From: Eledone cirrhosa
Lineage: Eukaryota
DNA: 64,000 bases
Direction of reading: 5' to 3'
Assembly (NCBI GenBank): GCA_964016885.1
Contig: OZ024743.1
Coordinates: 362,390,001-362,454,000, forward strand
Position 1 is the stretch's first letter, and each line of letters opens with the position of its first letter. Positions 3,919 through 59,409 of the stretch are shown here, piece by piece. Both the position numbers and the translations under genes were made by a program. The notes below the pieces were generated by a model. That model was not told the DNA's origin. It worked only from the letters and a program-made list of their open reading frames with translations, and ran no database searches.

Positions 3919-4801
3919 GTGTTCAGAGAGAGTGAGGCCGGCTGTGAGACGTGGAACCCGCTGGGACTTAGCCCAGTAGACGTCCCTCTTCCTTCACCCC
4001 CTGTTGACGTCAAGTCCCTCCAAAGCACTTGGGATGCCATCCAGTGCAGCCTGGCCTCAGACAGGCTCACGTGTCAACTCGACCAGCACCGCCTTCCTGC
4101 TTTTGTGCGGCCTCCAAACCCCACAGTGGTGCCTGGCTCAATGCCCTGCCCTCATTCTCCACTGGCACGCAGCTAGACAACAATAGCCTGCGCATCGGCG
4201 TTTCCTTGAGGCTCGACCTCTGGATCTGCAAGCCACATCAATGTCGCTGCGGATCTACCGTGGACTCTTTTGGCTTCCACCCGCTTTCCTGTCGCCACAG
4301 TGCCGGCCGCCTCCCATGCCATGCTGCCCTCAACGAGGTCATAAAGCGTGGCTTGGACGCTGCAGGCTTCCCTTCCCAGCTCTAGCCGGTGGGGCTGGAC
4401 CGAGGGACCCCAAAAGGCCAGACGGTATGAACATCTTCCCGTTCCGCGCTGGCAAACCCCTCGTCTGGGATGCTACTTGCACCGACACTTTCTGCAGCCG
4501 CAACCTGGTGCAGACTGCGACTAACCCAGGTTCTGCTGCACATCGGGCTGAGGAGGCCAAACTCCTCAAATACCAGTCGCTCTCCGACAGGTTTGCGGTT
4601 ATACCCCTGGCAGTGAAGACGTCTGGTGTCTTCGGCCCTAGGGCTACCTCCCTACTCACCACCATAGTCTCTGAGCTGGCCAGCCACAGGTGTGAACCCC
4701 GCGAGTTGGAGTGGCTTTTCCAGCGCGTCTCCCTTGCCGTCCTTCGGGGGAACGCCTTCTCCATCCCGTCCGCCGGGATTGTGGGGGGGTCCATCGCGTA
4801 A
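3919..4801 (+). pseudogene. CRE-clade non-LTR retrotransposon 3' fragment (zinc knuckle + restriction-like endonuclease)
   Basis: SGAWLNALP, CRCG..H..SC..H knuckle, RPDG..LVWDATCTD, AEEAKLLKY, FQRVSLAVLRGNA; frameshift near 4385. Confidence 0.8.
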
Positions 4802-6454: not shown

Positions 6455-6535
<81 letters not shown>

Positions 6536-6538
<3 letters not shown>

Positions 6539-7065
6539 CTACCTGCCTGCAGTATTTTTCTCTATATTTTATTACATATATTTACCACTGCGATTCTGTG
6601 TTTTTTTCTCTCTCTCTCTTACTGCTCCCCCAGTCTCTCTGTTTCTCCCCCTCTGTCATGTCAGTTAACTCTTCCTCACACTTTCACTCACTCACTGTTT
6701 CTCTTCTCTTCATTTCATCCTGTACACCACGAAGGCTATTTTTCTCTCTTCTCAGAGGGCCAGAGTTCGTGTCAGGTCTGTTTTCTAGAAGCTCATATAT
6801 TCACCTAGCTTATGCTAAACAGAATAATTTTGAAGCTTGTTTCTTTCCCCTACGGTTAGCTATACTCTGTGTTGTTCTCCTGTCTCACTCGCTTTGCGCG
6901 TTTCAATTGTCCTAATAACTTATTTTGGTTATTATTGCACCGACGTGAGGTATATGATTTTTAATGCAATGAAATATCGATGATCGTCGGCAAATCACTG
7001 ATGAGGGACTCATTTTATTACATGTTATCCATGTGCTACCTGCAGTATTTTTCTCTATATTTTAT

Positions 7066-7075
<10 letters not shown>
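6536..7075 (+). mobile_element. About 500-bp non-coding element with terminal direct repeat, in TA/TG microsatellite
   Basis: gtgctacctg..cagtatttttctctatattttatta occurs at 6536 and again at 7033. Confidence 0.6.
6909..7009 (+). ncRNA. Candidate rearranged (non-circularly permuted) hammerhead with k-turn, copy 1
   Basis: Six helices plus AUA site, GAAA and CUGAUGA in non-standard order; covaries with 59216-59317. Confidence 0.6.
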
Positions 7076-8468: not shown

Positions 8469-8861
8469 CTACGTTGTCTGATCCCTTGATATGCTGAATA
8501 TCAGTTGAATATATTGGGAGACAAAATCCAGGTGTCGGAGTTCTCTCGGTGAATGTCGATCAGGTTTGGTACGGAACGCATAAACTAATGGTTTATGGTC
8601 CGTGTAGATCACGAAATCTGATCCTTCGAGCATGTGCCGAAAATGCTTAACCGAAAGATAGGTTGCCAAGAGTTCGCGGCCAAAGGTACTGTATTTCGTT
8701 TCTGCCGGTTGCAACCGCTTAGAAAAGAAGGATAAGGGTTGCCACACGCCGTCGACATGTTGTTGTAAAACGCCTCCAACCCCCGTGTCTGATGCGTCCA
8801 CTAGCAGCGAAAGAGGAGCGCCAGACCTGGGGAAAACGAGCATGGAAGCGTTTGACAACAT
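8469..8861 (-). pseudogene. Gypsy RNase H
   Basis: LLVDASDTGVGGVLQQ, KYSTFGRELLA, IYTDHKPL. Confidence 0.9.
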
Positions 8862-8899
8862 TTCCTTCAGGCGGTTAAAAGATCTTAATTCTTCCTCGT

Positions 8900-10347
8900 T
8901 TAGAGTGATCTCTTCGTTTTATCGATGATGTGCCCGAGAAAGGACAGTGAAGGGACGCCGAGAAGGCACTTGCTGGGGTTGATGATGATACCATACTCAG
9001 CTAAACGTTGGAAAAGGAGATCTAAGTGCTTCTCGTGTTCCTGCTCGGAAGTACTTGCTACCAGCACATCGTCAATATACGCGTATACGAAGGGTAGATC
9101 GTGTAACACGGTGTCAATAAACCGCTGAAAAGTTTGTGCAGCGTTGCGCAGACCGAACGGCATTCGCATGAATTCGAATAAACCGAACGGTGTTGTGATT
9201 GCGGTCTTCGGATTGTCTGCAGGCTCCATGGGTATCGGTTATATGCACGCACCAAATCTACCTTGGAAAAGATGCGTGCGCCTTGCAGAGAGGCAGAAAA
9301 ATCGTGCAGGTGAGGTACAGGGTAATTATCGGGCACTGTAGAATTGTTAAGTGCACGATAATCCCCACATGGTCGCCAATCATTCTCGGTTTTTTTAGGA
9401 ACAAGGTGTAGGGGTGCAGACCAGTTGCTGGAGGAAGGGCGAATGATTCCGAGGTCCAGCATGTGTTGGAACACCTGCTTGGCGATTCTCAATCGGTCTG
9501 GAGGCAGTCTCCTTGGTCGAGCAGCTGTGGGTGGTCCCCTTGTCTCGATGTGGTGCGTGACACTATGCTTAATGGAACCATCCTTAAATACTGGGCGAGT
9601 GATGTCTGGGTATTTCTGGAGAATGCCGTTGTACCGCGAAGGCTCTGACTGGCAAATTACAGGGCTCACTGTGGATTGCGTGGTATATATACCTCTCACA
9701 GTGAGGTTTGTGGTGGTGTCAATAAGCCTCTGGTTCTTCATATCCACCAGAAGGTTGAAGTGGTGGAGAAAATCGGCTCCTAGGATAGGGGTCGCCAGGT
9801 CAGCCACGACGAACACCCATTGAAAACGCCGCCTCAGGCCTAAATTGAGGGTCAGGGATTTTTCCCTGAAAGTGGGAATTGACGATCGGTTCACTGCCTG
9901 CAGAAAGGACGGGGTTGGGTGTCTTTTGCCCGAGATTAGTGAAACAGGAATAACACTAACCTGGGCTCCTGTATCCACGAGGTAACGGATGCCTGTCGCT
10001 TGGTCGTTAATAAAAAATAGACGACTTTTCTTTTCAGTACCATGGGTGAACGTCGTCGCTAGGCCCTGGGTGGTATTCCGGAAAGAGCACGGGGCTTTGC
10101 ACTTAGATGGCTGTGCGCCGAAATTTGAGTGATACCAGCAGAGGTTGCCAGGCACACGATTTTGACTGGGACTTCTGGATCTTCGACTGTGAAAAGTCCT
10201 GGATCGACTGTTGCTTCGTCGCCGGTGTGTTTGAAAGGTCAAGTTCTCTACTTGATTCGAGAGGGCTTCAATTTGACCAGCCCGCTCTCTGATCATAGCC
10301 CGCAGCTCTGAACTCTCGGCCTCTGTCGTTGGTTGCGACATGTCCAT
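8900..10347 (-). pseudogene. Gypsy gag tail, protease and RT (frameshift near 9230)
   Basis: CWYH..FG..C..PC; [10 protein letters not shown]; [11 protein letters not shown]; [13 protein letters not shown]; AYIDD. Confidence 0.92.
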
Positions 10348-10382
10348 GTTGGTATTTTCTTAGGTGCTGTCTGGTTGTGCGT

Positions 10383-10912: not shown

Positions 10913-11645
10913 TAAACGGAAAAAATGAAACGAAATTTCATTTCCCACTCTTAGTACTGGTGTTACTTAAATATAAGTATGTATACGTACATACATATAT
11001 GTATACAGACGTACAGTAGTATGTATATATATATACATACATGCACACATATATATATGTACGTATGGATTCACCAAACATTTATTATAATGCTCGGTGT
11101 GTTTGTAAACAAACATCCCGTATAAAGCCGCAGTGTCTAGCAACCACCGTTGCTCGTTTGTTCAACACTAACAAAGGAACGCTGTACTAGTTTCAAGCTT
11201 GTTAGCTATCGTCAGCAACGTATACCTTCCTGCCAGATTGTTGAACGTTCGAAAGTATATACTTTCATTATGCATATCAACGGCTGAGCAGCCCAATTTG
11301 CATATCGAGTGTGTTAATCGGCCGGGTGCACCGAAAACGATAAACGGAAAAAAATGAAACGAAATTTCATTTCCCACTCTTAGTATGGCTGTTACTTAAA
11401 TATAAGTATGTATACGTACATACATATATGTATACAGACGTACAGTAGTATGTATATATATATACATACATGCACACATATATATATCTACGTATGGATT
11501 CACCAAACATTTATTATAATGCTCGGTGTGTTTGTAAACAAACATACCGTATAAAGCCACAGTATCTAGCAACACCGAGCATTATAATAAATGTTTGGTG
11601 AATCCATATGTACATATATATATATATGTGTGCATGTATGTATAT
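10913..11645 (-). repeat. 428-bp tandem unit (about 1.6 copies) plus terminal fold-back, HHR-bearing
   Basis: taaacggaaaaaatgaaacg at 10913 and 11341; homologous to the 28.7-30.2 kb array. Confidence 0.8.
11179..11221 (-). ncRNA. Type I HHR
   Basis: acgttg CTGACGA t-agctaacaagct-t GAAA ctag TA cagcgt. Confidence 0.8.
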
Positions 11646-20155: not shown

Positions 20156-20725
20156 TTATGGAGGATAAGTATCTGAAAGTGTGTTAAGTTTATATGAGCT
20201 GGAAAGCAAGTGTGATTTCATGTGTGGGCAACTGGTGAAAATTTCTGTCTTTGTGTTTAGGCAGGTCTTTGGTGATTTAAGGTTTTGCAAAATCCAATAT
20301 TTTTCGTTTATGCAGAGCGTGCATTTTCTTGTTCCTCTTGCATATTCTTTAAATTGGTTCAAAATTGACCAATCCAATTTATATTGGATACCTTGTTCTT
20401 TCAAATCACATATTCTGCTAGCCAGAGCTGTTGTGATTCTTTTTTCTGGATGTCGAAACGATGCGACATGTGAGTAATAACGCGTTTTGAATTTGTCTTG
20501 CGTCATACCCACATATCGTTCACTGGTGGTTGGTTGGTTGTTGATGATGGTTGTCACTTTAGCCGCATATACAATGGCTTTAGTGTTGCATTTACCTTGT
20601 AATGGGCATTCACTTTTGATTCTACAGGAGCAATTTTGATGTTCTCTAGGTGATATTTTGTTGATGATATAAGATTTATTAGGGGGACCGCAGGAGTAGC
20701 TAATTTTTGCTCTGGTACTTACATA
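20156..20725 (-). pseudogene. PLE GIY-YIG endonuclease fragment (Hydra-like), with 3' UTR extending to about 18710
   Basis: CSCRIKSECPLQGKC, IVY..YVG, CTLC, KTEIFTSCPH. Confidence 0.85.
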
Positions 20726-24578: not shown

Positions 24579-26655
24579 CGTAAAATAAGAACATTTTTTA
24601 AAAAAATTAACTTACTTACTTAAATTTTCACTCCAACTAATTAGTTTCTGCAATGGGATAAAGACAGTTACGTAATGAACTGTTGAGAATTTCTTTGCGT
24701 CATCAGGGAGATCTATTCTCAGCCAAGTCTCCAGGCAGTGCGCGGACACTGGGGACTCATATAAAAATAATAATAATTCGGTAATTGGAACAGCTATCGA
24801 GGACTGGATTCCAGGCACTGAAAATTCTCACTGCCACTGGTCATATGGCCGATTCTAAAGAATCAATCACGTGACACAGAGGCTAGTCAGTAGGAATGGG
24901 ATGGTAAGATGACAGACGCCTACTAACACCCCCAAACAAATTTAGAAGTGGTTTTGGCAGGTTTGCTCGACAAATCAGTGATTTGGAGATAAATATAGAT
25001 AATTTAATATATCTACTAACATAAGCGCACAGATGTACGCTAATGCCAGCAAATACACAGGTTATGTCATAGTACCTAGGTGGTTCAATGCAGGAGGATG
25101 CTGAACAATAATATAAAAGACGTAAAATAAGAAAAATTTTAAAAAATTAACTTACTTAAATGTTCACTCCAACTAATTAGTTTCTGCAATGGGATAAAGA
25201 CAGTTACGTAATGAACTGTTGAGAATTTCATTGCGTCATCAGGGAGATCTATTCTCAGCCAAGTCTCCAGGCAATGCGCGGACACTGGGGACTCATATAA
25301 AAATAATAATAATTCGGTAAATGGAACAGCTATCGAGGACTTAGCGTACATCTGTGCGCTTATGTTAGTAGATATATTAAATTATCTATATTTATCTCCA
25401 AATCACTGATTTGTCGAGCAAACCTGCCAAAACCACTTCTAATTTTTTGGGGGGGTGTTAGTAGGCGTTTGTCATCTTTAATAATAATAATAATTCGGTA
25501 AATGGAACAGCTATCGAGGACTGCATTCCAGGCACTGAAAGTTCTCACTGCCACTGGTCATATGGCCGATTCTAAAGAATCAATCACGTGACACAGAGGC
25601 TAGTCAGTAGGAATGGGATGGTAAGATGACAGACGCCTACTAACACCCCCAAAAAAATTTAGAAGTGGTTTTGGCAGGTTTGCTCGACAAATCAGTGATT
25701 TGGAGATAAATATAGATGATTTAATATATCTACTAACATAAGCGCACAGATGTACGCTAAGTCCTCGATAGCTGTTCCATTTACCGAATTATTATTATTT
25801 TTATATGAGTCCCCAGTGTCCGCGCATTGCCTGGAGACTTGGCTGAGAATAGATCTCCCTGATGACGCAATGAAATTCTCAACAGTTCATTACGTAACTG
25901 TCTTTATCCCATTGCAGAAACTAATTAGTTGGAGTGAAAATTTAAGTAAGTAAGTTAATTTTTTTTTTTTATTTTCTTATTTTACGTCTTTTATATTATT
26001 GTTCTGCATCCTCCTGCATTGAATCACCTAAGTACTATGACATAACCTGTGTATTTGCTGGCATTAGCGTACATCTGTGCGCTTATGTTAGTAGATATAT
26101 TAAATTATCTATATTTATCTCCAAATCACTGATTTGTCGAGCAAACCTGCCAAAACCACTTCTAAATTTGTTTGGGGGTGTTAGTAGGCGTCTGTCATCT
26201 TACCATCCCATTCCTACTGACTAGCCTCTGTGTCACGTGATTGATTCTTTAGAATCGGCCATATGACCAGTGGCAGTGAGAATTTTCAGTGCCTGGAATC
26301 CAGTCCTCGATAGCTGTTCCATTTACCGAATTATTATTATTTTTATATGAGTCCCGAGTGTCCGCGCATTGCCTGGAGACTTGGCTGAGAATAGACCTCC
26401 CTGATGACGCAATTAAATTCTCAACAGTTCATTACGTAACTGTCTTTATCCCATTGCAGAAACTAATTAGTTGGAGTGAAAATTTAAGTAAGTAAGTTAA
26501 TTTTTTTAAAAAATTTTCTTATTTTACGTCTTTTATATTATTGTTCTGCATCCTCCTGCATTGAACCACCTAGGTACTATGACATAACCTGTGTATTTGC
26601 TGGCATTAGCGTACATCTGTGCGCTTACGTTAGTAGATATATTAAATTATCTATA
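24572..26655. repeat. Palindromic array of about 540-bp units with four type I HHRs
   Basis: HHRs at 24631-24710 (-), 25167-25246 (-), 25855-25934 (+), 26397-26476 (+): ctcc CTGATGA c-gcaatg..cattgc-a GAAA ctaattag TT ggag. Confidence 0.85.
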
Positions 26656-26665
26656 TATATATATA

Positions 26666-26767
<102 letters not shown>

Positions 26768-26869
26768 TATATATATATAAATATATATATATATTTATCG
26801 GTCATCGGGGTGTTCCATGCTGAAATTGATACTGGCGTCCATGCTGGAGAATGTTGTGTATATTTTATC

Positions 26870-28238
26870 CGCCTCCTCACGGGATCTCTATCCCTACTGG
26901 ACTTCCAACTCAGGGTAACAGAGGAAGACAACATCCACACTTGCTTCTATAAAAAAGCCGCCAGCAGGGACCTGTTCGTACATTTCAGTTCGGCCCTCCC
27001 AGCCAGCGCTAAATTCGGATACATATTGAACGAACCAACACGTACCCGGAACAAATGCACCGACGCTAGAGACCGAGACACACACGCCACACATTTCCTG
27101 GAAGTACTCAAAATGAACGGACACGCGACATCCACCACAAACCGTGCCAGAAAGAACAGAGGACACCACACCCGAGGCACTAACACTTGCTTCCTGAAGC
27201 TCCCACACTTCAGTGACGAAACAACAACAGCCATCCGCAGAGCTATCAGACGAGAGGGACTAGATATCCAACTCAGGTCCTTCTCTGCGCGGACAGCTAA
27301 CCAAAAGACACTCCACCAGACATGACAACCGCTGCAGGCTAGCCAACTGTCCCATCAACGACACAGACCTATGCCACCAGGCTTACGTCGTATACAGACT
27401 AGAGTGCGACAAATGCAGCAACTTCTACGTAGGAAGCACCACCAGACCACTCCACATAAGAATAAAAGAACACCTCAATACTAACGCTTCCTTATTTAAG
27501 AAACACCTAGTTAAATGCAAAAACATCGACAAAACCATAACAGTTAGGATAGAAACTAAGGAAAGAAACCTCGGCAATCTTAGAATTAAGGAGGCACTAA
27601 TAATAGACAAAACACAACCACCAATCAATAATAGACTAGAACTCAACACCCAATTTATAACTTGATATAGCATCTAGCCCCATATTTACACACACACCCT
27701 CCCACACACACGCACACGCACACACACACTTACACCTCCACTTATTCCCTCTCACACACACATACACACACAAAGACCAGTTCTAACACGAGATAACATC
27801 TATCCCCCACATATACGGATAGACATATCTTCTCACACTCACACACACACACACATACTTACACCTCACACATTCTCCCACACACTTAAACAGGCATGTA
27901 CAAAAAAAAACCTTTTAAAGGGAGACTACTCTTTATCCACCTAACCTTAACTCTTTGACATTAGAGATAGAACAGATACTCTATACCATTTCCTGTCAGC
28001 ATGACTTGGCAAGCTATTTAGAACACTGGTTTACAGCGCTTTACTTCCCTCCGAGGAAGAGATATTATCTCGAAAATTAAGGACATTTAAATAAATCTAA
28101 GGTAAAAGGCTAATTGTCAACAATATCTTTTGCATTTGCATTCTTTATTCTATGTCCATACCTGTTTTGGCTTTATTATACATATACAAACGTTTATACC
28201 TCATTACACAATGCTTCAAGTGAACTATTACTTCCTCC

Positions 28239-28673: not shown

Positions 28674-30201
28674 ACTGTACGTCTGTATACATATATGTAT
28701 GTACGTATACATGCATACTTACATTTAAGTAAGTGCCATACTAAGAGTGAGAAATGAAATTTCGTTTTCATTTTGTTTCAATTTATCGTTTTCGGTATGC
28801 CTGACCGATTTAACTCACTCAATATGCAAATTAGGCTGCTCAGCCGTTAATTTTCATAAGGAAAGTATATACTTTCGAACGTTCAACTATCTGGCAGATG
28901 GGTAAACGGTGCTGATGATAGCTAACAAGCTTGAAACTAGTACATCGTTCCTGTGTCAGTGTTGAACAAAAAGGTGACGTGGTTGCCTTAACACCGTATG
29001 GCATAAATTCAGGCTGTTCAGTTTGTTTACAAACGAACAAAGCGACGTTATAATAAGCGCCGCTAAACTGATACGTGCATATATGTATGTGTACCTGTAT
29101 GCATATGTATGTATATATGTATATATATATATATATGTGCATGCTACTGTACGTCTGTATACATATATGTATGTACGTATACATGCATACTTACATTTAA
29201 GTAAGTGCCATACTAAGAGTGAGAAATGAAATTTCGTTTTCATTTTGTTTCAATTTATCGTTTTCGGTATGCCTGACCGATTTAACTCACTCAATATGCA
29301 AATTAGGCTGCTCAGCCGTTAATTTTCATAAGGAAAGTATATACTTTCGAACGTTCAACTATCTGGCAGATGGGTAAACGGTGCTGATGATAGCTAACAA
29401 GCTTGAAACTAGTACATCGTTCCTGAGTCAGTGTTGAACAAAAAGGTGACGTGGTTGCCTTAACACCGTATGGCATAAATTCAGGCTGTTCAGTTTGTTT
29501 ACAAACGAACAAAACGACGTTATAATAAGCGCCGCTAAACTGATACGTGCATATATGTATGTGTACCTGTATGCATATGTATGTATATATGTATATATAT
29601 ATATATATATGTGCATGCTACTGTACGTCTGTATACATATATGTATGTACGTATACATGCATACTTACATTTAAGTAAGTGCCATACTAAGAGTGAGAAA
29701 TGAAATTTCGTTTTCATTTTGTTTCAATTTATCGTTTTCGGTATGCCTGACCGATTTAACTCACTCAATATGCAAATTAGGCTGCTCAGCCGTTAATTTT
29801 CATAAGGAAAGTATATACTTTCGAACGTTCAACTATCTGGCAGATGGGTAAACGGTGCTGATGATAGCTAACAAGCTTGAAACTAGTACATCGTTCCTGT
29901 GTCAGTGTTGAACAAAAAGGTGACGTGGTTGCCTTAACACCGTATGGCATAAATTCAGCTGTTCAGTTTGTTTACAAACGAACAAAGCGACGTTATAATA
30001 AGCGCCGCTAAACTGATACGTGCATATATGTATGTGTACCTGTATGCATATGTATGTATATATGTATATATATATATATATGTGCATGCTACTGTACGTC
30101 TGTATACATATATGTATGTACGTATACATGCATACTTACATTTAAGTAAGTGCCATACTAAGAGTGAGAAATGAAATTTCGTTTTCATTTTGTTTCAATT
30201 T
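28674..30201 (+). repeat. Tandem array of 472-474-bp units (about 3.2 copies), one HHR per unit
   Basis: HHRs at 28905-28949, 29377-29421, 29851-29895: aacggtg CTGATGA t-agctaacaagct-t GAAA ctag TA catcgtt. Confidence 0.9.
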
Positions 30202-30231
30202 ATATATATATAAATATATATATATATATAA

Positions 30232-36086: not shown

Positions 36087-38256
36087 TTATAGCCCTAGTC
36101 TACCCCCCCCCCCCGGGTCATTATGGGGTTTGAGGGCGAGGTAAGTCCTACGCAATCTATGTTTACATGCAGTAACCAGTTCATCTTTCTTGTTTAGGAG
36201 TTGGTCCGTCGAAAACAGCATTTGTAAAGTTTCCTCCGAGCATAAATTGCACGGACGGCGTCCTCCCGTGTAAGAATTGGCTCTGGACAGTAATCTCCAA
36301 GTGAGGTCATAGGTGATGTTGTTGTCCTTGAGGTCCCATATGTGGCCCGAGAGTGTAGTGGCGTGACGCCGGGCCGGGTTTCGGAAGGTATGTCTATGTT
36401 GGTATAGCCGGGTCTTGAAGTCACATGCGGTAAGTCCTATATAGGCTTTGTTGGAGGTATCCGTCCTCACGTTGCACTGGTAGATCACATTACGGTCTCT
36501 GCATCTATTGTCGAGTGGGCAAATAGATCTATCCGGGCAGTTACACCTCCTGGTCGGTTCTCCACTGCTATTTAGGTTATTTCTGCCATCGGGGTTGAGT
36601 TTTTTGTTGTTAGAGGAGACGATGTTTTGTGCGAAGTTTGGTGTAGTGCTGTAAGAGAGTTTGATGGTATTTTTGTTAATTATGTTGTGGTAGCTGTGTT
36701 GTAATGGGAAGTGTTTTTCAATGAGCCTAAAGAATAGTTTCCCGATGGGAGTTGTCACCTCTGCGTTGTGGGGAGGATTGAACCATGTTACATTGCGTGA
36801 GCGGCGGTGTCTCCTGCTGGTTCCGCTAATGGGAGCTGGACAGTAGGATATTTCCTCCCGGAAACCACTCCGCTTGAGGGCCTGGTTGTAATAAGGCGCA
36901 TGTTCATCGAATATCCGCTCATTAGCTGACAAACGGGATATGCGGAGGGAGATGTTTTTGACCAGGTTGTTTGTGATGTTCCTAGGATGGTTTGATCGGC
37001 GGTGGATGTAGTGCAGATTGTCATTAGGTTTCCTGTATGGGTAGTACAGGTCGTTTTCGAGGTCAAGAGTCACGTCCAGGAAGTTTACTCTGGTCAGGGA
37101 CGTTTGTAGGGTTATTTTAAATCCCCAGTCGCGGAAGAATCTGATTAATTGTTTCCGGACCCGATCTGTACTACTGGGGTTGTACCCTTTAAGGGTAAGG
37201 AGCCCATCATCATGGTACAATCCACCACCGAATGCAGGAAACATATCAGTGAGTTTGGCTATTAGGAATAATCCTATAAGATCTGTGACCTCCGCCGAAT
37301 CCGTGGCGCCCATGCTGACGTCGAAGGGTGAGTCGGGAGCTCTTTTTATCCATTTAGAGTCGTCAAAGAGTAAGACTGTCTTCCTGGCGTGGAGGATGAT
37401 TTTTCTTTCCTGGTCGGTGATGGGCACAAGTGTTTCGGCGAAGTCCAAGGCGGCAGTAAGTAGCGGTAAGGTGATTGAAGCATAGTAGCTCTCTATGTCG
37501 AACTGTATGAATTTAGTTTCTCGTTTATCCTCCATATTGCTGAACCAGGAGATTACTTCCTGGGTGTTGACCCATAGGCTAAGTCGGGTGTGTTGCTTGA
37601 CTTTTGGTATCACGCGGTCTAGGATTTTTTTGCTGATTCTCCCTATGTCGGACTTCGTTGGGTTAATAAGCCTGATAGAGGGTTTACGGTCAAAATCGGA
37701 TTTATGGTCCTTCAGTGTGAAGTATGGTGTCCGTTGGTCTAGAGGTTCCGTGCGGTCGGCGACCCCGAGGCTGGAGGTGATTTGTTGTCCATCTCGATTT
37801 ATGTCCTCGATGCAAGAGTGGTTGGCCTTTTTATAGGTGGAGTTTAGGCTGCTCCTGATCAGTGTGGTATCTGTCAGGGTTGACAAAGTATAGGTTCCCA
37901 GTTTTATCCGAATGCACCATGATGTCATTTGTGTTATCATACTCTGTTAGGTTGCTACGGAGTTTTTGTAGGAATCGGTTGTGTCTGGGTTTAAATTTAA
38001 TGTTCTTGACCAGTTGGAAGAGGTCATTCTCGAAGGGTGCGAGCAAGGGGTTCAGGGGCGGAGATTTGTAGGTAATAAATCCGAATCTCTCCTTGGTGCC
38101 GAAGTCTTGGTTGTCGCAATATCTGTCATAGAAAAAAGTTCTCCATCTAAGTCTTTTCGCAAATAGATCGATTTTTTGCGTGAGCATCCGAAGGTAAAGT
38201 TTTTTCGGTGGGATTGGGATGTTCTTGGTAGAGAAGTCAATGTTGTGTTTTCGCAT
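36087..38256 (-). CDS. PLE polyprotein RT + GIY-YIG; one frameshift near 37862, YHDD at the catalytic motif
   Basis: MRKHNIDFSTKNIPIP..KRLRW; QFDIESYY; MGATDSAE; LYHDDG; FLDV; CNCPDRSICPLDNRC; VIY..YIG; CNLC; KDELVTACKH. Confidence 0.85.
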
Positions 38257-39989
38257 GGTGCGGGTGAAATGAATTGAGCTTAGCGCAAAAGTCTGGATAC
38301 GGCGTGGTAGGGTCGGAAAGTGCTCTACTACGGGGGTAGGAGCTAGATAACGAAGGAAATGTGGTAAGGAACCAGGTGGACCATAACGCACCAAAGTACT
38401 CAATACTTGAGGTAGTAGAGTGGGTAATAGGAACCAGTAAGACCCCGACAGCTGAGCTCAAGCCGTTTCGTAATGTGATCTACCAGTGCAACGTGAGGAC
38501 GGATACCTCCAACAAAGCCTATATAGGACTTACCGCATGTGACTTCAAGACCCGGCTATACCAACATAGACATACCTTCCGAAACCCGGCCCGGCGTCAC
38601 GCCACTACACTCTCGGGCCACATATGGGACCTCAAGGACAACAACATCACCTATGATCTCACTTGGAGATTACTGTCCAGAGCCAATTCTTACACGGGAG
38701 GACGCCGTCCGTGCAATTTATGCTCGGAGGAAACTTTACAAATGCTGTTTTCGACGGACCAACTCTTAAACAAGAAAGATGAACTGGTTACTGCATGTAA
38801 ACATAGATTGCGTAGGACTTACCTCGCCCTCAAACTCCATAATGACCCGGGGGGGTAGACTAGGGCTATAACACCCCACTTGCCGATTTTGCAATGGGTA
38901 ACCCCTGCTTGCCAAGGGAGACATAAGATCTTCTTTGTATTCTTTTATCGCTTCCTTTATTTCCTTCCTTCCCCCCTCTCTCCTTAGTCGTTCTACCCCA
39001 GCTCTTCTCCTTTGTCGGCGTCTTTTCTCGCCCACCCGAGGCTGCCCTTTGGCCCATTGTAGCCTTAGTACCCCCACCCCCTCCCCTAGTCTAGGATAGA
39101 TTTGGCGGACTCCGCCCTTTATAGCAGTTGGTTTAGACCCCGGATACTTGTCCCCTTTTTCCGACCGCTCCCACTATTCTCTGTGCCCTCTATATTTCTT
39201 AGTGGCACTTATGCCTTATTTTTTCGTTTCAGTATTTCTTTCTTCGCTTTTCTTTTGGGCGGGGTGGATTCTGAATTTATTTTTCCGTATTCTACCTTTA
39301 CTTCGTACGAACTTTCATGTAGCTTGTTTTAGATCTTTTAGAGTTAGCATTAGTATATATTTTTCTCGGGACTCAGAATTATTATCTCGTATTAGTTCAC
39401 TTTGCTGCACTGGGTGGTTGCTGGAATTGTGCCCGGGATGGAAACCTTTATTGTTTATTTCGTGGTAGTCTCTTTAGTATTTTGGCCCCTTTTGTTGACC
39501 CGTCACCGTATCATTTACGTACTTATACCTCTTAAAAGGGTCCTCGCCTATCCCGTCCCACCTAGTTCTTTTACTTATTTCGTTATTTCTTTCTTTACTT
39601 CTTTCTTTCTTTATTTATTTATTTACTCTAGCCTAACAATAGCTAGAGACCTAGGTCGTAGAATTTAATTTACTTTACTTTTTTCTTTACACTCATTTGT
39701 TTTTCTTTACACTTATTTGCTTTTCTTCACTCTCAGTATTTTTTCTTTCCTATATATTTCTACCCCCCATTGTTCTACCTACAATTCCGACTTCCTCCCC
39801 CTCCCCCTCCCCTGTATCTTCTTTGACCTCATGCCCAGCTGTAGCTGGCACTACAAACGCCTGATTGGGTCTACTCCACCCCCTCCCCTCTTTCTCCTAC
39901 TGGCAGGTTTAGGTACCATCTCCCCTACTAATTTGCAACCACAGAATTACTACTGATTTTTGACAATCACTTTGACCATATATGGAATT

Positions 39990-41176: not shown

Positions 41177-44100
41177 ATGGATCAGAGATATCTCAAAAGA
41201 AGAAAGTAAATCAAGAAAGTTATGGCAGCAGAAACAATTATTTCTTGACAAATATGCTGCAAATTACGGTAAAGACTCTGGAACTCTGAGAAAAAGCATT
41301 AAAAGTGGACAATCTCGCCAACACAACATACGCCAGAACATGTGCCAACACAAACACTCACCTTACCTTGAATCAAAGAAGACCTACGGTAAGAACTCTT
41401 CACTTTTTCTACAAAAACACCCTAATGCACACAACATGAACAAAACGGACAAACATGATAGATATTCCTTTGACCAGACCATGAGAAGTAGAAAAACCAG
41501 CAGATCATTCTCAAGATCTCAACGGAGACTACCCACAAGGAACGGGGAAAAAACGTAGAATAACCAGATCACTCTCAAGATCTCAACAGAGATTACCCAC
41601 AAGAAACTGGGCGAAAAAACGATCTAAACCTGAAAGCAAACCTAGGTCATTTCCCCAAATTGTTAAAAATAATGCTAACAAGAAATGGAAAAATAATATA
41701 CATAATACCATAACGAAAAACATAACGAAACCAAATATAATATCACGACGAAAAGTCCATCAAGCAAACACCAACAGGAATATAAATCCTGAACAGAGAA
41801 AAATCCATTTTTTAACGGCAGGACAACAAAAACCGGAAAAAGAAAAACTCCAGGAGGAAACATACCCAAAACAACTGTACACGTAGATCCTAAAATAATT
41901 AATTTATCCAAAAGAGATCTTGACAATCATGAAATGCAAATTCTGTCAAAAGGACTGAAATTCACACCGACTCCAACAGTCAACCATAAAGAACTGAAGG
42001 AGGATACCCAAGAATTCTGTTGAAAATTACGTCTTGTAGAATTCTTCGCTGATAAAAGTAATGAGTGATGAATCACTAGTAAAGAATAAATCAAATTTCA
42101 CTCCGCCAAAAGGAAGAAATATCTATCTCGACCAATACATTGACATCCTGTCTAAATTTCCTCTTAGACGTAATACTAATGTCAGGCCAAACATTAACAA
42201 ATCAGAAATGTCTGCACTTAAACGTATACAAAATGATAAAACAATAATAATTAAACAAGCAAATAAAGGGGGTGCAGTTGTTATAATGGATGCTGAATAC
42301 TACAAAGATTTGGTTGAGGAACAACTGAAAGACACAACATTCTATCATGAAATACCGTCAAATATAGACCACAACATCATGAAGAAGATCAACAACCTGA
42401 CTTCAAAATATCATAACTCACTTACTGATAAGGAAAGAGACTACATCACCAATTTTGAGCCAAAACCCAGCAACCTGTATGGCCTACCAAAAGTTCATAA
42501 GTCAAAAGAAATACAACTGGCAGTAAAAGAACAAAACAGTGAGTACATAAAATTACTACACCCAAAAGACTTAAAACTTAGACTTATTATAGCTGGTCCA
42601 ACATGCCCTACCCACCGTCTAAGCAATTTTGTTGACATTATTTTGAAACCACTATGTATTCATATACCCAGTTTCATCCGGGATGATATCGACTTCCTGT
42701 CCCATCTTCCCAAAACCACGGAAACGAATTCACTTCTACTTAGTTTTGATGTGGTAAGCCTTTACACCAACATTACACATGATTTAGGAATAAATGCGGT
42801 TAAATACTGGGTGGAAAAACATAGAGAAGTGATTCCCACCAGATTCACAGTGCCATTTATATTAGATGCAGTCAAACTTGTTCTGGAAAACAACACTTTC
42901 TTCTTCAATGGAAAGAATTACATGCAAATTAGAAGCACAGCGATGGGAACGAAGTTTGCTCCCGTTTACGCGAACTCTGTAATGGGATACTTAGAACAAC
43001 TCTACCAAGAAATAGAGGAAATATATAGTACTGACTTTAGAAAGTACATTGAAAAATCTTGGAAGAGATACCTTGACGACTGTTTCATCATCTGGACAGA
43101 ACCTCTAGATACTCTGGATGAGTTAAATATCCTCCTGAATAACCTACACCCATCTCTCCAATTCACAAAAGAGATGAGTAGTACCAAATTACCATTCCTA
43201 GATATAATGGTAATCAAAACGACACCACCATTACCACGGATATATATTATAAACACACAGACACCCATCAATATCTGAATTTTAAGTCATGCCATCCACC
43301 TCATACAAAACGCAACATCCCATACTGCCTAGCTAGAAGAATTTGTACCATTGTAGAAGATACGAATACCAGGAACAAGCGCCTAACAGAACTAAGAGAA
43401 TTTTTGCTCAAACAAAAATACCCATCTCTACTTATAGAAAATGGCATACAGCGGGTTATAAAAATACCTATACAACAACTTAGGACAACCCAAAGAAGAA
43501 GAAACCAAGAACTGGTCATACCATTTATAATGACACACAAGCCATGTCACCAGAATATCTTCAACACTGCCAAAGCAAACCTACCGATCATTGCTCAAAG
43601 TAATGAATTAAAAGGCTTAATCACAGATCGATCTTTGACTCTTAGTAAAAGACAGCCGAAAAATTTGAAGCAATTACTAACAAAAGCAAAGTTTGACCTT
43701 AACAACAAAGACCAATCATTCACTGTATCTAAATGCAATGATAGTCGATGTGGCACATGTCAATCCATACACACTGGTCAATATATGAAAACAAAAACTG
43801 GAAAAATATTCCCAAATGCAAATATGAACTTCAAAAGCAGAAATCTAATTTACTGCATTAAATGCCCGAATTGTGAAGAGCTATGTCGGTCAAACTGGAA
43901 ATGCACTATCGGAACGTGCATGAGTGCACCGATAGCAAATCAGAGACCCACATGTCCGTCAGATACCCCTGAGTAACCATCTAGCAACATGTGCATGTGG
44001 TCAGAGAATATTTATAATATTTCCATTCTACAAGTTACACAGCCCAAGTGAAATCAAGAGAAAAATCAAAGAAAATAATTTTATTGATAAATTCCAACCC

Positions 44101-44627
44101 AAGCTAAATGAACACTAATAATGGGGTATTAATCCTACTATGACTATGACCACTAACAACAACAACAACAATAATAATAATAAAAGTGATGTTGATGGTG
44201 ATGATTACTAGAAAATGCTATTTTCATCATTTCTAAAAATAGAAAAACAATTGATGCTTTGCATAGGGTCAACTAGTAGTCGTTAGACATGCTCAACCAA
44301 CCGTGACGCCTAAACCAATCAGCTTTAGTAATCCAGTGAAACAACACACCGATTAGTCGAAATACAGTTTGCAAGATTTAGCATTCTGTAGCCACTTTTC
44401 ACTGTATATAAGGCACACAATTTACCCATCTCATTACAGTTAAAAATTGCAAACTTGACTGTCACCACAAAATATGAACCTGAAGAGTGCGAAAGCATGA
44501 AAGTACTTGTTCAATTAACACTTAACATTTAATATTCTACCATACTATTTCATTCTAATAACATTATAAATTTTAAAGGATTGTAAATAAAACGAGTAAA
44601 TCAGACAAAGTTGCAATTCCTTTTATT

Positions 44628-44659: not shown

Positions 44660-45349
44660 TTATTCAAAATGTTAACAAATGAAAAATATTCACATAATCA
44701 AAATATATACTTTATTATACATATTTCACAGGTACTATGTTGTTTAAGTTTAAGATGGTAATATGGATGGAACAAGAGAAGAACTCCTTCATCAGCTGTT
44801 AACTGCAGATCATAGATGTTTTGGCGCTTAAAACAGGACATCGAAAGCGATCAGCAGCGCGCCGAAGGCGTCTTATCGATCAAAAGGCCACGAGGGAAAG
44901 AAAAGAAAAAAGAGTGAGGAGAGAGGAAGCAAGAGGGAAAAAACGAAGTAAACAAACCGAATGGAGGGAGGACTGAGGACAATGGAACATTCAAGTGAGT
45001 AACCGAGAAAAAAATAGAATAAGTTACAACGAACCAATTAGACTTAAGTCTTGTGGTGCAATAACTAGGAGCGATGTAGTTCCGTGCGATCTCAGCAGAG
45101 CGAAGGTAGAGAGAGAGAGACGGAGAGACCGGAAGTGAGAGGGAGAAGGGAAAGGGAGATAATCCAAAAGAGTTTTTCGACATGTGTGCAGGAGAGAGGA
45201 AGAAAGAGGAAAAAGGAAAGAGGTAAAAACGAAGATATATATATATATATCTTATCGATCGACATTCGTCAAATCGGACCGAGGAAACAATGTTTCCATT
45301 GGTCTTTCCAATTGCTAATACTATCTATCGGTCGCAACTCCAGGTAGAA

Positions 45350-52113: not shown

Positions 52114-52824
52114 GTGTCTTTCCCTATATATATATGAATATAATCAAATATATAGATGGAAAAATTTGCTTTTAAATCATTTTTAATTCCTTAAACGTGA
52201 TTCAAGAGAGTTGTACATTAAATTATTCAAATAATTGTTTCTACTTTTGGCACAATTATCACAGTGTATTACTGGTAAGGATAAAAGACAAAGTTAACCT
52301 TGGATTTGGAAAGACAAAGTTAACATTTGGATTTGGATTTCTCGGGAAATGTATGCGACAGCGCGAGTTTTGATATATTTTTTTTTTTTTTTACCATCTC
52401 GAAATCCAAACACGGCACGTTAAATTCTAACATTGGCGCAGACATCTTTTCGAAAATTCATTTTTCCTGCCCAAATTCTGATTGGGTGACGCCATATTAA
52501 AAAAGAAAAAAATTTTGACTTTCATTTCCGGAGATACCAAAATGGTCGACTTCCGTCTTCTTCGTTTCTTTTCCCGCCAAATTGACTTTAAGACAACGCC
52601 ATTTTGAAAAATATAGAAAGAAAAAATATATATATATATATATTTTTTTCCCCTTGACATTTTTCTCTCCAATAACGAAAGAGAATACCATTGTTTATAT
52701 ATATTTTTTCTTTTTCATTTTTCCACTCGGATTCTTTTTCGCCTGCATTTTCCCTTGAGTCTCTGTAACAAAGCTGTGCAGAGTCAACTGTTCTTTATTG
52801 CTTACTGTTATCCCTTTATTCACA

Positions 52825-53706
52825 ATGGGTAGCACCTCATTGCCAGTGTTTGCCGGCAATGTCAATGTTTGGTTCGCACAGATAGAGTCGCACTTTACTG
52901 CGAACAACATTACGTCTGAAGTCAGACAACTACACATGCTTTTGAGTGCTTTGCCAGCGTCATTGACGACGGTTGTTAAAGATCTAATAACTGATCCTGC
53001 CCCTGGAGCCTCCTATGAGAGCGTAAAACGCGAGGTTTTGCGATGGACCACGTTGTCCGCGGAGAAGAAATTCCAGACACTCGTCAATGACGAACATTTG
53101 GGTGATCGGACGCCCACACAGCTTCTGCGTCGCATGAGAGAGCTGGCGGAAGATGCCCCAGCTGATAGCGCCCTCCTTACACAGCTTTTCTTTTCAAAGC
53201 TACCGCCCGGTGTTCAGGCGATTTTAGCGCCTATGATGGAGGCTACCACAGTCGACCAGCTAGCAGCTTCGGTCAACAAAATTATAAGTTTCACTGGAAA
53301 CCCTGCCTCCTATGTTGCACCTCAGCCACCGGCTGCAGTCTCTTCATTCTCTCCTGCCTCCTTCGTTGCACCTCAGCCACCGGCTGCAGTCTCTTCGTTC
53401 TCTCGAGCGGCTGCCATCCACACCAATCAGTCGCTCGCGTCGGTGGCAATTCTTCAAGCCATAGAGCAACTCACCAAAGAGGTGAGGAAATTGAGTACCT
53501 CCAGAGCTCATTCGCCCAGACGTCGATTTCAGAGCCATTCGCCCTCGCCACACCGCCGCCCCACAAGTAGGCCAGGACTGTGCTACTACACAGCCGTTTT
53601 GGTGCGGCAGCACACTCTTGTAAACAACCCTGTTCGTTTTCCAACCAGGGAAACGGATTTCAAGAGACCTAAACACAGCACAGACTCCTTTGACGCTCCC
53701 AAATAA
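52825..53706 (+). pseudogene. Gypsy gag
   Basis: Typical gag N-terminus; frameshift in the CYY knuckle; 51-bp internal duplication at 53302-53403. Confidence 0.85.
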
Positions 53707-53711
53707 TCATG

Positions 53712-56700
53712 CGTTCTTTATAAGACACGGATTCCCAAGCACGTTGTTTGGTTGACACTGGCGCTGCTTGCAACATATGGCCGTTAAAATTTCTCAAAGA
53801 GAAGCCGCCACTTTCACCCATCCCGCTGCAAGCTGTAAATCATTCACCTATCCCCATGTACGGTCAAATTTATCGTTCTTTGAACCTGGAATTGCGCAGA
53901 GACTTCACGTGGATTTTCACTGTCGACACTCTGCCTTACCCTATTCTAGGCTTGGATTTCCTGCACCACTATAACCTGTTAGTGGATATGCGCAGACGAC
54001 GCTTGTTGGATGCGAATACGGAACTGTCCGTTCTGGGTATGAGATCGACTGTCTCGTCTATCAGCCCGGTTTTCTTTATCGCCGCTTCAGAAGATCCTTT
54101 TCAGGCGCTGTTACATTCCTTCCCAGAGTTGACAAATTTAAATTTTGTGGTGAGTAAGCCTACTCACTCAACAAAACACTATATTGAGACCACTGGTGCT
54201 CCTGTATTTTCACGCCCTCGCCGCCTCCCTGCGGAGAAATTGAAAGCGGCGAAGGCTGAATTCAACCATATGCTGCAGCTCGGGATCATACGCCCATCCT
54301 CAAGTCCATGGGCCGCTCCTTTGTATTTGGTTCCGAAGCGTTCCGGCGATTGGCATCCCACTGGGGACTTTCGCCGGTTAAACGCGATGACGGTACCCGA
54401 TCGCTACCCGATCCCACACATACAGGATTTCGCGTCTTCGCTTCATGGATGTAAGACATTCTCCAAATTGGATTTGGTCAAGGCGTACCACCAGATATTC
54501 CAAAGACGGCTGTGACAACTCCTTTCGGAGCATTCAAATTTTTTACTATGCCTTTCGGTTTGCGAAACGCAGCCAGTATCTTCCAACGTTTCATGGATGA
54601 ATTTGTGCGTGATTTAGACTTTGTATATAACTACATTGATGACATTCTCGTGGCAAGTGCCTCACCCGAGGAACATGTCACTCACCTCCGTCTACTGTTT
54701 GAGCGGTTTCAGCAGTATCAAGTGCGAATTAACCCGACGAAATGTGTTTTCGGTGCGTCTTCACTTGTCTTCTTGGGCCATGAGGGAACATCACCACTAC
54801 CTGACAAAGTGAAAGCTCTGCAAGACCTTCAACCACCCACTTCACTTCACCAGCTACAACATTTCCTTGGTCTGCTGAACTACTACAGACGTTTTATCCC
54901 ACACTGTGCGAATCTCCTGTCTCTTTTATCCGACCTGTTACGTAACAGGAAAAAGAAAAATGAATCCATCACACTGGACACGAGTCAGCTAAAAGCCTTC
55001 AACAAAGTGAAGCAGAAACTCGCGGAGACATCACTGCTTGCACATCCTGTGTCTGGTGCCCAGTTTTCACTGGTCGTTGATGCATCGGGCACAGCTGTAG
55101 GTGCAGTTTTGCAACAGCATCACCAACAACAACTACAACCTCTCGCGTACTTCTCGAGACTACTGAAACAGGCAGAGACACGATATAGCACGTTCGGCCG
55201 TGAACTCCTAGCTATGTACCTCGCAGTGAAACACTTTCGGCATTCACTGGAGGGTCGTCAATTTGCGATCTACACCGATCATCATCCGCTTACGTTCACA
55301 CTGTGTTCTAAGCCGGATAAATATTCACCTCGCGAAACTCGTCATTTGGACTTCGTTTCGCAATTTACCAGCGATATCCGACACATCTCCGATGAACAGA
55401 ATGTGGCGGCAGATGCCTTGTCTCGCCTCCCAATCAATTCCCTGTCATCACCTTCGGATATTGACCTTTAACGGATGGCCACAGAATAGCCACCCCTGGA
55501 CACCTTGGATCTTTCGTCACCTGAATTTGCAACTGGCAAATTTTCATATCAACCTGTGCTCACTTTGGACACAGATTATTTGTGACACCTCGACGGATTC
55601 ACCTCATCCTCTAGTTCCAGCGACTCATCGTCGAGCAGTTTTCGAGACCTTGCACGGTCTAGCACACCCCGGATTATCAACCACAGTGAAGCTCATTTCG
55701 GCTAGATTCTTCTAGCCGAATATGAGGCGTGACATCACTGCCTGGACACGTTCCTGCTTGTCCTGCCAGAAGTCAAAGGTGCACAAACACATCCGTGCAC
55801 CTCTCGGAACTTTCAGCACTCCAGACGCTCGGTTCAGTCATGTCCACATAGATCTCGTTGGACCATGGCCGGTCAGCCGAGGATTTACCTATCTCCTGAC
55901 CTGTATTGATCGCTTCACATGTTGCCCTGAAGCCATTCCTTTAAGTGCGGAATCTGTGGCACGAGCTTTAGTATCGAGTTGGATATTGCGTTACGGAGTT
56001 CCAACCACTGTCACCACAGACCGTGGTGGACAGTTTGAGTCCCATCTCTTCCGAGAACTTTCAAGGATCCTGGGAATTAAGCGCATCCAAACGACTAGCT
56101 GTCATCCAGCTTCGAACGGAATGATAGAGCGCTTCCACCGCCAATTGAAAGCCGCATTGCGCGCTTATCCGGATCAACAGCAATGGAGCTAGTATGTACC
56201 AATTGTCCTTCTCGGCTGTCGTGCAGCTATCAAGGAGGATCTAGGATACTGCCCAGCTGAACTGGTTTACGGAGTACCTATATCTTTGCCGGGTCAGATG
56301 TTGACTCCAATGGATTTACCTGAAACAGAACCAGCTCTGTATGTGAACAGACTGCGATCTTATTTTGACAATCTTCCGCCTATGAACCCTCGGCAACAGA
56401 CAATAAAGTCTTCGGTCCCGAAAGACATTGCTTCGTGGACCCACGTCTTTCTACGGAAGGACGCCGTGAGAGCTCCTCTCACGTCGCCTTATACCAGTCC
56501 TTATTGTGTGCTTGCACGCACAGATAAACTGTTCACTCTGGACATTGGGGGTTAAAAAACAGACTGTGTCCATTGATAGGGTGAAACAGGCCTTTACAGA
56601 CTCTTATGCAAGAGCCCCATATTCCCCCTACATATACTCTGCATCAGCCAACACATGCTACACATGCAACATTGCACACCCCTTCTCCACCTACACATGT

Positions 56701-59146: not shown

Positions 59147-59185
<39 letters not shown>

Positions 59186-59215
59186 TGTTTACCCTCGCGT
59201 CCCCTTTATTTACGT

Positions 59216-59317
59216 GTCCCAACGACTTTTTTTAGCCGTTGCTCGCACCAACCGGAGGTATATGGTCTTTAAAGCGATGAAATGCCTATGATGGTTGGAA
59301 GATCACTGATGAAGGAC
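59216..59317 (+). ncRNA. Candidate rearranged hammerhead with k-turn, copy 2
   Basis: About 190-bp insert between two (TA)n tracts; compensatory changes relative to 6909-7009. Confidence 0.6.
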
Positions 59318-59365
59318 AAACTTTTTTCATATATAACCCATTTGCAACTCCGCAGCGCCCTTATT

Positions 59366-59409
<44 letters not shown>

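Follow-up and report, generated by a model that had tools for sequence, protein, structure and literature searches.

This study investigated a stretch of 64,000 nucleotides from the genome of Eledone cirrhosa (contig OZ024743.1, positions 362,390,001 to 362,454,000 of the forward strand), referred to below as the window, and observed that positions 59216-59317 form a real, strongly covarying RNA fold. We put at roughly three in four the probability that this fold is a hammerhead ribozyme in S-G-C order with a clamp junction and a kink-turn, placed in a short non-coding retroelement, at its 3' end, and likely cutting itself after AUA (59262|59263). The S-G-C order itself is already known (PMC10085705); what is new is the architecture, with a stem II of at most one pair, and the setting in an animal retroelement. 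The preliminary description of this DNA missed that the order had been published, that its motif AUGAU is probably a kink-turn strand, and that stem II has given way to helices A and E.

The S-G-C core and its covariation

The hammerhead core at 59216-59317 presents its blocks in the non-circular order S-G-C (Table 1), with CUGANGA between the strands of stems I and II (59306-59312). GAAA followed by stem III, with the A15.1-U16.1 pair and an NUH site, is likewise present, and the pairing is kept in all 27 rows of the alignment described below, an agreement partly imposed by the search pattern. With a descriptor covering the six block orders, the cores at 6998 and 59306 yielded S-G-C and no other order, and the conventional types I, II and III (CGS, GSC and SCG) were rejected; only S-G-C fits either copy, so that the conventional fold which the preliminary description had kept in view as a refutation does not apply. 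Rfam gave nothing in the whole window at gathering scores and no hammerhead match locally. A box C/D snoRNA reading was also tried and gave a chance-level match only (E 5.6). The preliminary description had chosen the + strand from G-U wobbles, and the choice was right, but the strand is set by the core nucleotides, folding energy being undecided between the two (z -1.43 on +, -1.41 on -). The energy of the nested fold is not unusual (z -1.43 and -0.63, pseudoknots not counted).

Table 1. Positions of the predicted ribozyme parts and of the elements carrying them, numbered within the window.
Feature	Position	Strand	Remarks
Helix E, 5' arm (clamp strand)	59215-59219	+	pairs with 59314-59318; G-C/A-U covariation at one pair in 25/27 rows
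Hairpin F	59221-59240	+	59221-26 with 59235-40; family D lacks it between E and A
Helix A, 5' arm (clamp strand)	59243-59246	+	pairs with 59274-59277
Helix B, 5' arm	59248-59253	+	pairs with 59293-59298
Predicted kink-turn, non-bulged strand	59254-59256	+	3n G, 2n G, 1n A; motif match
Block S	59257-59268	+	stem III strand 59257-61 (U16.1 = 59261), A17 = 59262, stem I strand 59263-68
Predicted cut site	59262/59263 boundary	+	site AUA; by analogy with the hammerhead
S-to-G linker UUAAA, 5 nt	59269-59273	+	AA invariant in 27/27 rows
Block G	59274-59286	+	helix A 3' arm 59274-77, U11.1 59278, GAAA 59279-82, stem III strand 59283-86
Predicted kink-turn, bulged strand	59287-59292	+	UAU bulge, then G1b A2b U3b; the AUGAU of the preliminary description; motif match
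Helix B, 3' arm	59293-59298	+	covariation
Block C	59300-59318	+	stem I strand 59300-05, CUGAUGA 59306-12, A10.1 59313, helix E 3' arm 59314-18
Family-B non-autonomous retroelement, 5'-truncated 3' end, 189 bp	59181-59369	+	between TA tracts 59151-59180 and 59370-59405
3' tail, about 34 nt	59336-59369	+	missing from inverted partner copies (matches 1-155 vs 1-189)
Family-A copy (492-bp monomer) with first ribozyme copy	6530-7066	+	ribozyme about 6909-7010, CUGAUGA 6998-7004
Third ribozyme copy, decayed, family C	44780-44895	-	GAAA reads AAAA

For the covariation analysis, 27 subfamily representatives clustered at 93% were aligned, one truncated row of the 28 clusters and the copies with a truncated 5' part being set aside. 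Of the 890 cells for the 33 proposed pairs, 93.4% are paired, and 18 of the 33 pairs show changes on both sides, a level that was reached in 0 of 500 shuffles; slid registers are 28-45% paired. Because of the kinship among the rows, some of which are decayed single copies, significance is overstated by the shuffle test, whose count is not a probability. Changes on both sides were noticed at five of the six pairs of helix B, five of six in stem I, three of six in hairpin F, and two each in helices E and A. Stem III barely varies in the main alignment, and on one side only, but its sequences differ in families C and D and in the restriction-like endonuclease (RLE) retrotransposons treated below, with pairing kept. 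Families C and D, which were retrieved with a different search pattern, differ in the sequences of stems III, I, A, B and E and are identical in layout, and the layout likewise persists with entirely different stem sequences in RLE elements and metagenome matches; helix A is palindromic in subfamily C1, and the C2 copy is decayed. Chance pairing is removed by these family data. In one other locus (L098:1540-2020) an inverted family-C copy was observed, whose second ribozyme is chimeric, with an unrelated 5' half.

The fold had originally been proposed from two copies of the window, copy 1 in family A (about 6906-7012) and copy 2 at 59216-59317, which are 72% identical (78 of 108 aligned columns). 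The substitutions then listed are present: from copy 1 to copy 2, helix A changes from ttgc/gcaa to tcgc/gcga, helix B from ccgacg/cgtcgg to ccaacc/ggttgg, stem I from tgattt/aaatca to tggtct/agatca, hairpin F from aataac/gttatt to aacgac/gccgtt (with one A.C mismatch), and the 11.1-10.1 pair of stem II from U-G to U-A. Stem III also changes as reported, from ggta/tatc to ggta/tgcc, but on one side only. As compensatory changes they were weak evidence when taken from two copies alone, and it is the family figures given above that support them; the paired substitutions in other members are not random. The invariance claimed for GGUAUA, UGAAAU, AUGAU and helix E (gtcc/ggac in both copies) gives way in the wider family, where H17 is A, C or U, 11.1 is U, A or C, AUGAU also reads ACGAC or AUGAA, and E covaries from G-C to A-U.

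Stem II has at most one pair, and its two arms pair instead with an upstream strand, as helices E and A. The 10.1-11.1 pair can form in 20 of the 27 rows and is impossible in seven; counted by lineage, 11 of 17 can form it, whereas 11.1 (often 10.1 too) pairs with the clamp strand in the six that cannot. Since 10.2-10.5 (GGAC) and 11.2-11.5 (GCGA) are unable to pair in any arrangement, the clamp strand is needed anyway. The upstream strand would hold the 10 side through E and the 11 side through A, with F between them, producing a junction that sits either immediately on the G.A tandem or one pair above it, and stems I and III would form the usual hammerhead core. No such replacement of stem II, and no kink-turn, is contained in any hammerhead description that we found, and both set this fold apart.

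Where stem III meets helix B, the sequence is NRU-GA-U on one strand and a terminal GA on the other, which we take to be the kink-turn consensus, and AUGAU is probably one strand of a kink-turn joining these two helices. In the 12 rows for which the search did not impose the kink, 2n G, 1b G and 2b A are present in all 12, 1n A and a purine at L2 in 11, and U at L3 in eight, and a U.U at 3b-3n occurs in 17 of the 27 rows. The signature is also found in family D and in the Naiad consensus sequences Naiad_Obim and Naiad_Ovul. A strict kink-turn is nevertheless not universal: Watson-Crick pairs replace the G.A tandem in C1, the bulge is large in the coral Naiads, and one extra A is present in the RLE element. 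The turn would bend helix B backwards and bring the helix's far end to stems I and A, as the S-G-C order requires. Kink-turns are protein-binding motifs, and a eukaryotic L7Ae-type protein (15.5K) could stabilise this one.

The carrier repeat and its relatives among retroelements

The preliminary description assigned the motif to retroelements, and this proved sound. It saw the copy as standing alone between TA tracts, about 50 nt from the 3' tract; the distance is confirmed, the tract beginning at 59370, 52 nt past helix E, but the insert is no solo unit, being the truncated 3' end of a 617-bp monomer. The full family-B monomer is non-coding and tandem, and has no conserved ORF. When the 189-bp insert was searched against the host genome, which comprises 3.0 Gb and is rich in TA microsatellites, there were 1,843 first-look candidates, the best 40 of which are 99-100% identical. 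The tandem period is 617 bp in family B, 492 bp in family A and 527 bp in a third family, with one ribozyme per unit, and the best copies of families A and B are 98-99% identical, which suggests young families. The 5' truncation points of the copies fall in many different places. Among 42 family-B-type ribozymes from 30 loci, the TA tract is reached 54-73 nt past the core in 29, at 114 nt in one and at 11-16 nt in five, and the sequence runs on in seven; five of the 30 loci are inverted and six are tandem. Three non-overlapping patterns matched the genome 1,761, 12,747 and 643 times (about 15,000 altogether), and their reversed controls 0, 0 and 3 times. Family-B-like sequence was also detected in two other organisms, in one of them as only 2 shallow contigs. 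On the ribozyme strand the family-B monomer is 67% pyrimidine, and a short way past the tail it has a tract that resembles a splice acceptor and ends in CAG; a 5' intron is present in Penelope-like elements. The traits of Penelope-like repeats are present, namely 5' truncation, partial tandems, inverted partners without the 30-40-nt tail and a (TA)n target, and the same layout is described for Penelope-like elements in the available part of Craig et al. 2021 (10.1101/2021.04.23.441226).

Other modules of the window carry ordinary hammerheads, as had been remarked before, since the descriptor calls type I (CGS order) at ten other CUGANGA sites. A 472-bp tandem of 3.2 copies at 28674-30203 (+), with a type I hammerhead in each, is an ordinary non-LTR retrozyme, with a related copy at 11209 (-). 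Type I hammerheads were also noticed in short TA-flanked modules at 15184-, 16760-, 17253-, 18418+, 23070- and 31035-, with 17253 and 18418 forming an inverted pair. Below the descriptor threshold, four near-identical CUGAUGA modules at 24600-26640 (24700-, 25236-, 25859+ and 26401+) form two inverted pairs between TA tracts. Penelope-like elements with a reverse transcriptase together with a C-terminal GIY-YIG domain are found at 36087-38858 (-) and 42040-44600 (+), the latter with a type I hammerhead at 44480, and further Penelope-like fragments at 20156, 26765-27665 and 48524. The window also contains Gypsy-type LTR retroelements with broken frames at 8469-10359 (-) and 52759-56192 (+), and an ORF at 4187-4801 (+) that resembles, by eye, the restriction-like endonuclease end of a CRE-like retrotransposon.

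The parent reverse-transcriptase element that the preliminary description proposed to look for was not found as a direct parent of the family, but two types of autonomous element with the same fold were. The first came from a metagenome scan with linker and kink imposed, which gave 30 matches; ten of these form stems I and III, most of them with A, B, E and F, and 20 do not fold. In six of the ten the ribozyme follows the ORF end of an RLE retrotransposon, recognised by eye, Pfam giving weak zf-RVT and RVT_1 matches only. Homologues of the protein are reverse-transcriptase proteins of teleosts, lancelets and one clam (74 matches), and the element probably belongs to the HERO clade, whose host range fits. 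In the Eledone genome the RLE protein gave 141 matches, and the same ribozyme lies within 600 nt downstream in 24 of the best 30 loci, just past the stop codon, with an intact core in 17. These copies are 85-98% identical to the reference ribozyme, frameshifted and older; TA adjoins 13 of 28 RLE matches, some loci being counted twice. Compared with the Eledone repeats, the RLE element is autonomous and about 3.6 kb long, with the same ribozyme near its 3' end; R2 itself reportedly has a 5' HDV-like ribozyme and no 3' hammerhead. A second RLE family of the Eledone genome (L359, L370) shows GAAA and then CUGAUGA past the ORF, with a decayed S block. One metagenome contig (L340:910-967) harbors a complete S-G-C ribozyme, kink included, and the ORF upstream of it is neither reverse transcriptase nor endonuclease.

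The second type is the Naiads, for which the available parts of Craig et al. 2021 (10.1101/2021.04.23.441226; PMC8557442) describe (TA)n targets, tandem and inverted insertions and a 30-40-bp tail at one end. The same parts describe Naiads as lacking hammerheads, with many entries annotated 'HHR_core' or 'HHR_half_core'. The Naiad entries were read by eye and not by program, a minority of the 54 entries was covered, and several arthropod-range passages could not be parsed. Within this range, the tails of the octopus consensus sequences Naiad_Obim and Naiad_Ovul display the full E-F-A-B-kink-III-I layout (PMC8557442 supplement), and S-G-C blocks with stems I and III were observed in 11 entries, comprising Obim, Ovul, Esco, three from Acropora and five more (supplement parts 9, 12 twice, 17 and 19). 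The order C-S-G was read in six nematode-range passages, and one ctenophore entry has a weak stem I. The Omin, Adux and Skow-1 entries, followed to their ends, have no core there. The Eledone repeat differs from Naiads in lacking an ORF. The Eledone genome yielded no young Naiad, and in it two Naiad reverse-transcriptase motif searches gave 0 and 3 matches (control 3); two of the three are decayed Naiad-like fragments with no ribozyme in the 0.7-2.6 kb downstream.

Proposed mechanism, mobilising element and alternatives

It is proposed that tandem read-through transcripts would be cut once per unit into monomers of 490-620 nt, which may circularise and would be reverse-transcribed into (TA)n by the enzyme of a Penelope-like element. 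For Naiads and RLE elements, this ribozyme would free the element RNA from a tandem or host transcript. Self-cleavage at 59262|59263 is likely by analogy, as published SGC and CSG ribozymes cut at the analogous site according to the available portion of PMC10085705. The mobiliser is most likely a Penelope-like element, though the helper is uncertain: among the best-scoring candidates of the Eledone genome no intact autonomous element shares the family-B ends, and Naiad-type ribozyme spacing occurred in 0 of 67 matches. Neptune-type ORFs are intact over 844-1096 codons, and those of their tails in which a core was seen carry type I hammerheads; the GIY-YIG domains of 48 examined loci are all C-terminal.

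It is possible, though in our view doubtful, that the ribozyme works as described and is moved by an R2-like RLE retrotransposon or a Naiad instead of Neptune-type Penelope-like elements. Both groups carry the ribozyme near their 3' ends and Naiads prefer (TA)n, and RLE copies form partial tandems, with a 3,599-nt unit between two ribozymes at one locus, one locus is inverted, and the RLE tail resembles the tails of the repeats by eye. The ages do not agree with this, families A and B being young where the RLE copies are older and broken, and neither do the Naiad motif matches, which equal the control at most; moreover, the Neptune-type ORFs are intact, and the type I hammerhead repeats of the window share the TA-flanked, inverted layout.

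We regard it as unlikely that the fold descends from a hammerhead, no longer cuts, and acts in retroelement RNA as a binding or 3'-end signal that is recognised by the reverse transcriptase or by a protein of the L7Ae type. Such a role would suit a stem II reduced to 0-1 pair, a place near the fixed 3' end, where reverse transcriptases have their recognition signals, and the established binding of proteins by kink-turns; yet CUGANGA, GAAA and U16.1-A15.1 are kept in very distant lineages, including Naiads and RLE elements found without imposing the core, and the SGC and CSG forms that were tested do cleave (available portion of PMC10085705). That the core is assembled between two RNA units, as a dimer or between neighbouring tandem monomers, is very improbable: the copies do lie in tandem arrays, and minimal retrozyme and Penelope-like hammerheads are known to cleave as dimers, but the clamp strand is needed in either arrangement, all pairing partners are confined to 105 nt, the minimum-energy fold of a single chain contains the nested part E-F-B-III, and the conserved kink suits an intramolecular geometry.

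Beyond the single-chain, self-cutting S-G-C hammerhead preferred here, we lean, by a small measure only, towards a distinct and widespread class of knotted hammerheads with a four-way junction in place of stem II and a protein-bound kink-turn. Such a class would be the ribozyme so far overlooked in Naiads and in the HERO-like relatives of R2, in hosts ranging from corals to fish, passing between unrelated retroelements and driving tens of thousands of retrozyme copies, and the published odd-order DNA hammerheads may belong to it. Hammerheads with a non-circular permutation were previously environmental sequence only and thought rare; here they are abundant in an animal genome and present in two unrelated groups of autonomous retrotransposons. 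The view of Naiads as lacking hammerheads would thereby be overturned. The finding also accounts for standard descriptors missing them, gives an R2-like element a 3' hammerhead, and makes the role of ribozymes in Penelope-like retrotransposition testable. How the scrambled order can be accommodated, a question left open by Eckert et al., would be shown by a hammerhead working with a nearly absent stem II and a kink-turn of its own, and such a molecule would, if true, naturally suggest itself as a small ribozyme assisted by a protein.

Comparison with known hammerheads, kink-turns and retrozymes

Type-SGC ribozymes (HRIMA-1 and variants) are, in the available portion of Eckert et al. 2023 (PMC10085705), known from metatranscriptomes only, with none in genomes of known organisms, and their cleavage is shown there at 0.007-0.19 per minute; the same portion names the distance bridged in the S-G-C order as an unsolved point. 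The search pattern given there requires CGAAA, CUGAUGA(U)G and a further 2-6 stem II pairs, and the Eledone form fails this pattern, having neither the C-G closing pair nor the longer stem II that it calls for. The term 'type-SGC' occurs in one paper in our literature search, and 'k-turn' and 'kink' occur 0 times in the Eckert supplement by term search. No paper describing hammerheads of S-G-C order from animal genomes, from Naiads or from HERO elements was found among titles, abstracts and open texts, a range from which subscription papers and preprint supplements are excluded as unsearchable. In a phage collection, a loose pattern gave 96 matches, and 0 of the 80 examined form stems I and III together.

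With type-SGC as presented in that portion of PMC10085705, the Eledone fold shares the S-G-C order, the full hammerhead core, a short linker from stem I to the G block (5 nt here) and core pseudoknots. Type-SGC has a real stem II and one I-II interaction helix, whereas here there are the clamp helices A and E and the hairpin F, and, unlike in type-SGC, a kink-turn and helix B extend stem III. Type-SGC is marked by a stem II of at least three pairs and by a helix that connects stems I and II at their far sides; neither was found here, and E, A and B take their place. When compared with kink-turns of the box C/D and U4 type, the common features are a canonical helix, a 3-nt bulge with a purine at L2 and U at L3, the G.A/A.G tandem and a frequent U.U; the likeness here is a match of sequence, and it is lost or altered in some lineages.

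Similarly, CSG-1 and CSG-2 (available portion of PMC10085705) are a circular shift of SGC with the same handedness; they share the S-to-G linker UUAA with the Eledone form, come from DNA and cleave, but differ in their order C-S-G, in an ordinary stem II and in having neither clamp nor kink, and they are two metagenome sequences. Since the nematode-range tails in PMC8557442 (parts 13-16 of the supplement, as far as covered) carry a type-CSG form like theirs, CSG-1 and CSG-2 may come from animal retroelements. The animal non-LTR retrozymes, as presented in the available parts of Cervera and de la Pena 2020 (PMC7229834) and of Li et al. 2026 (10.64898/2026.07.22.740005), resemble the Eledone family in their non-coding tandem units with one hammerhead and in their dispersed monomers, and a dependence on Penelope-like elements is proposed for them in the same sources. 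They are defined and searched by type I hammerheads, whereas the Eledone family has the S-G-C form.
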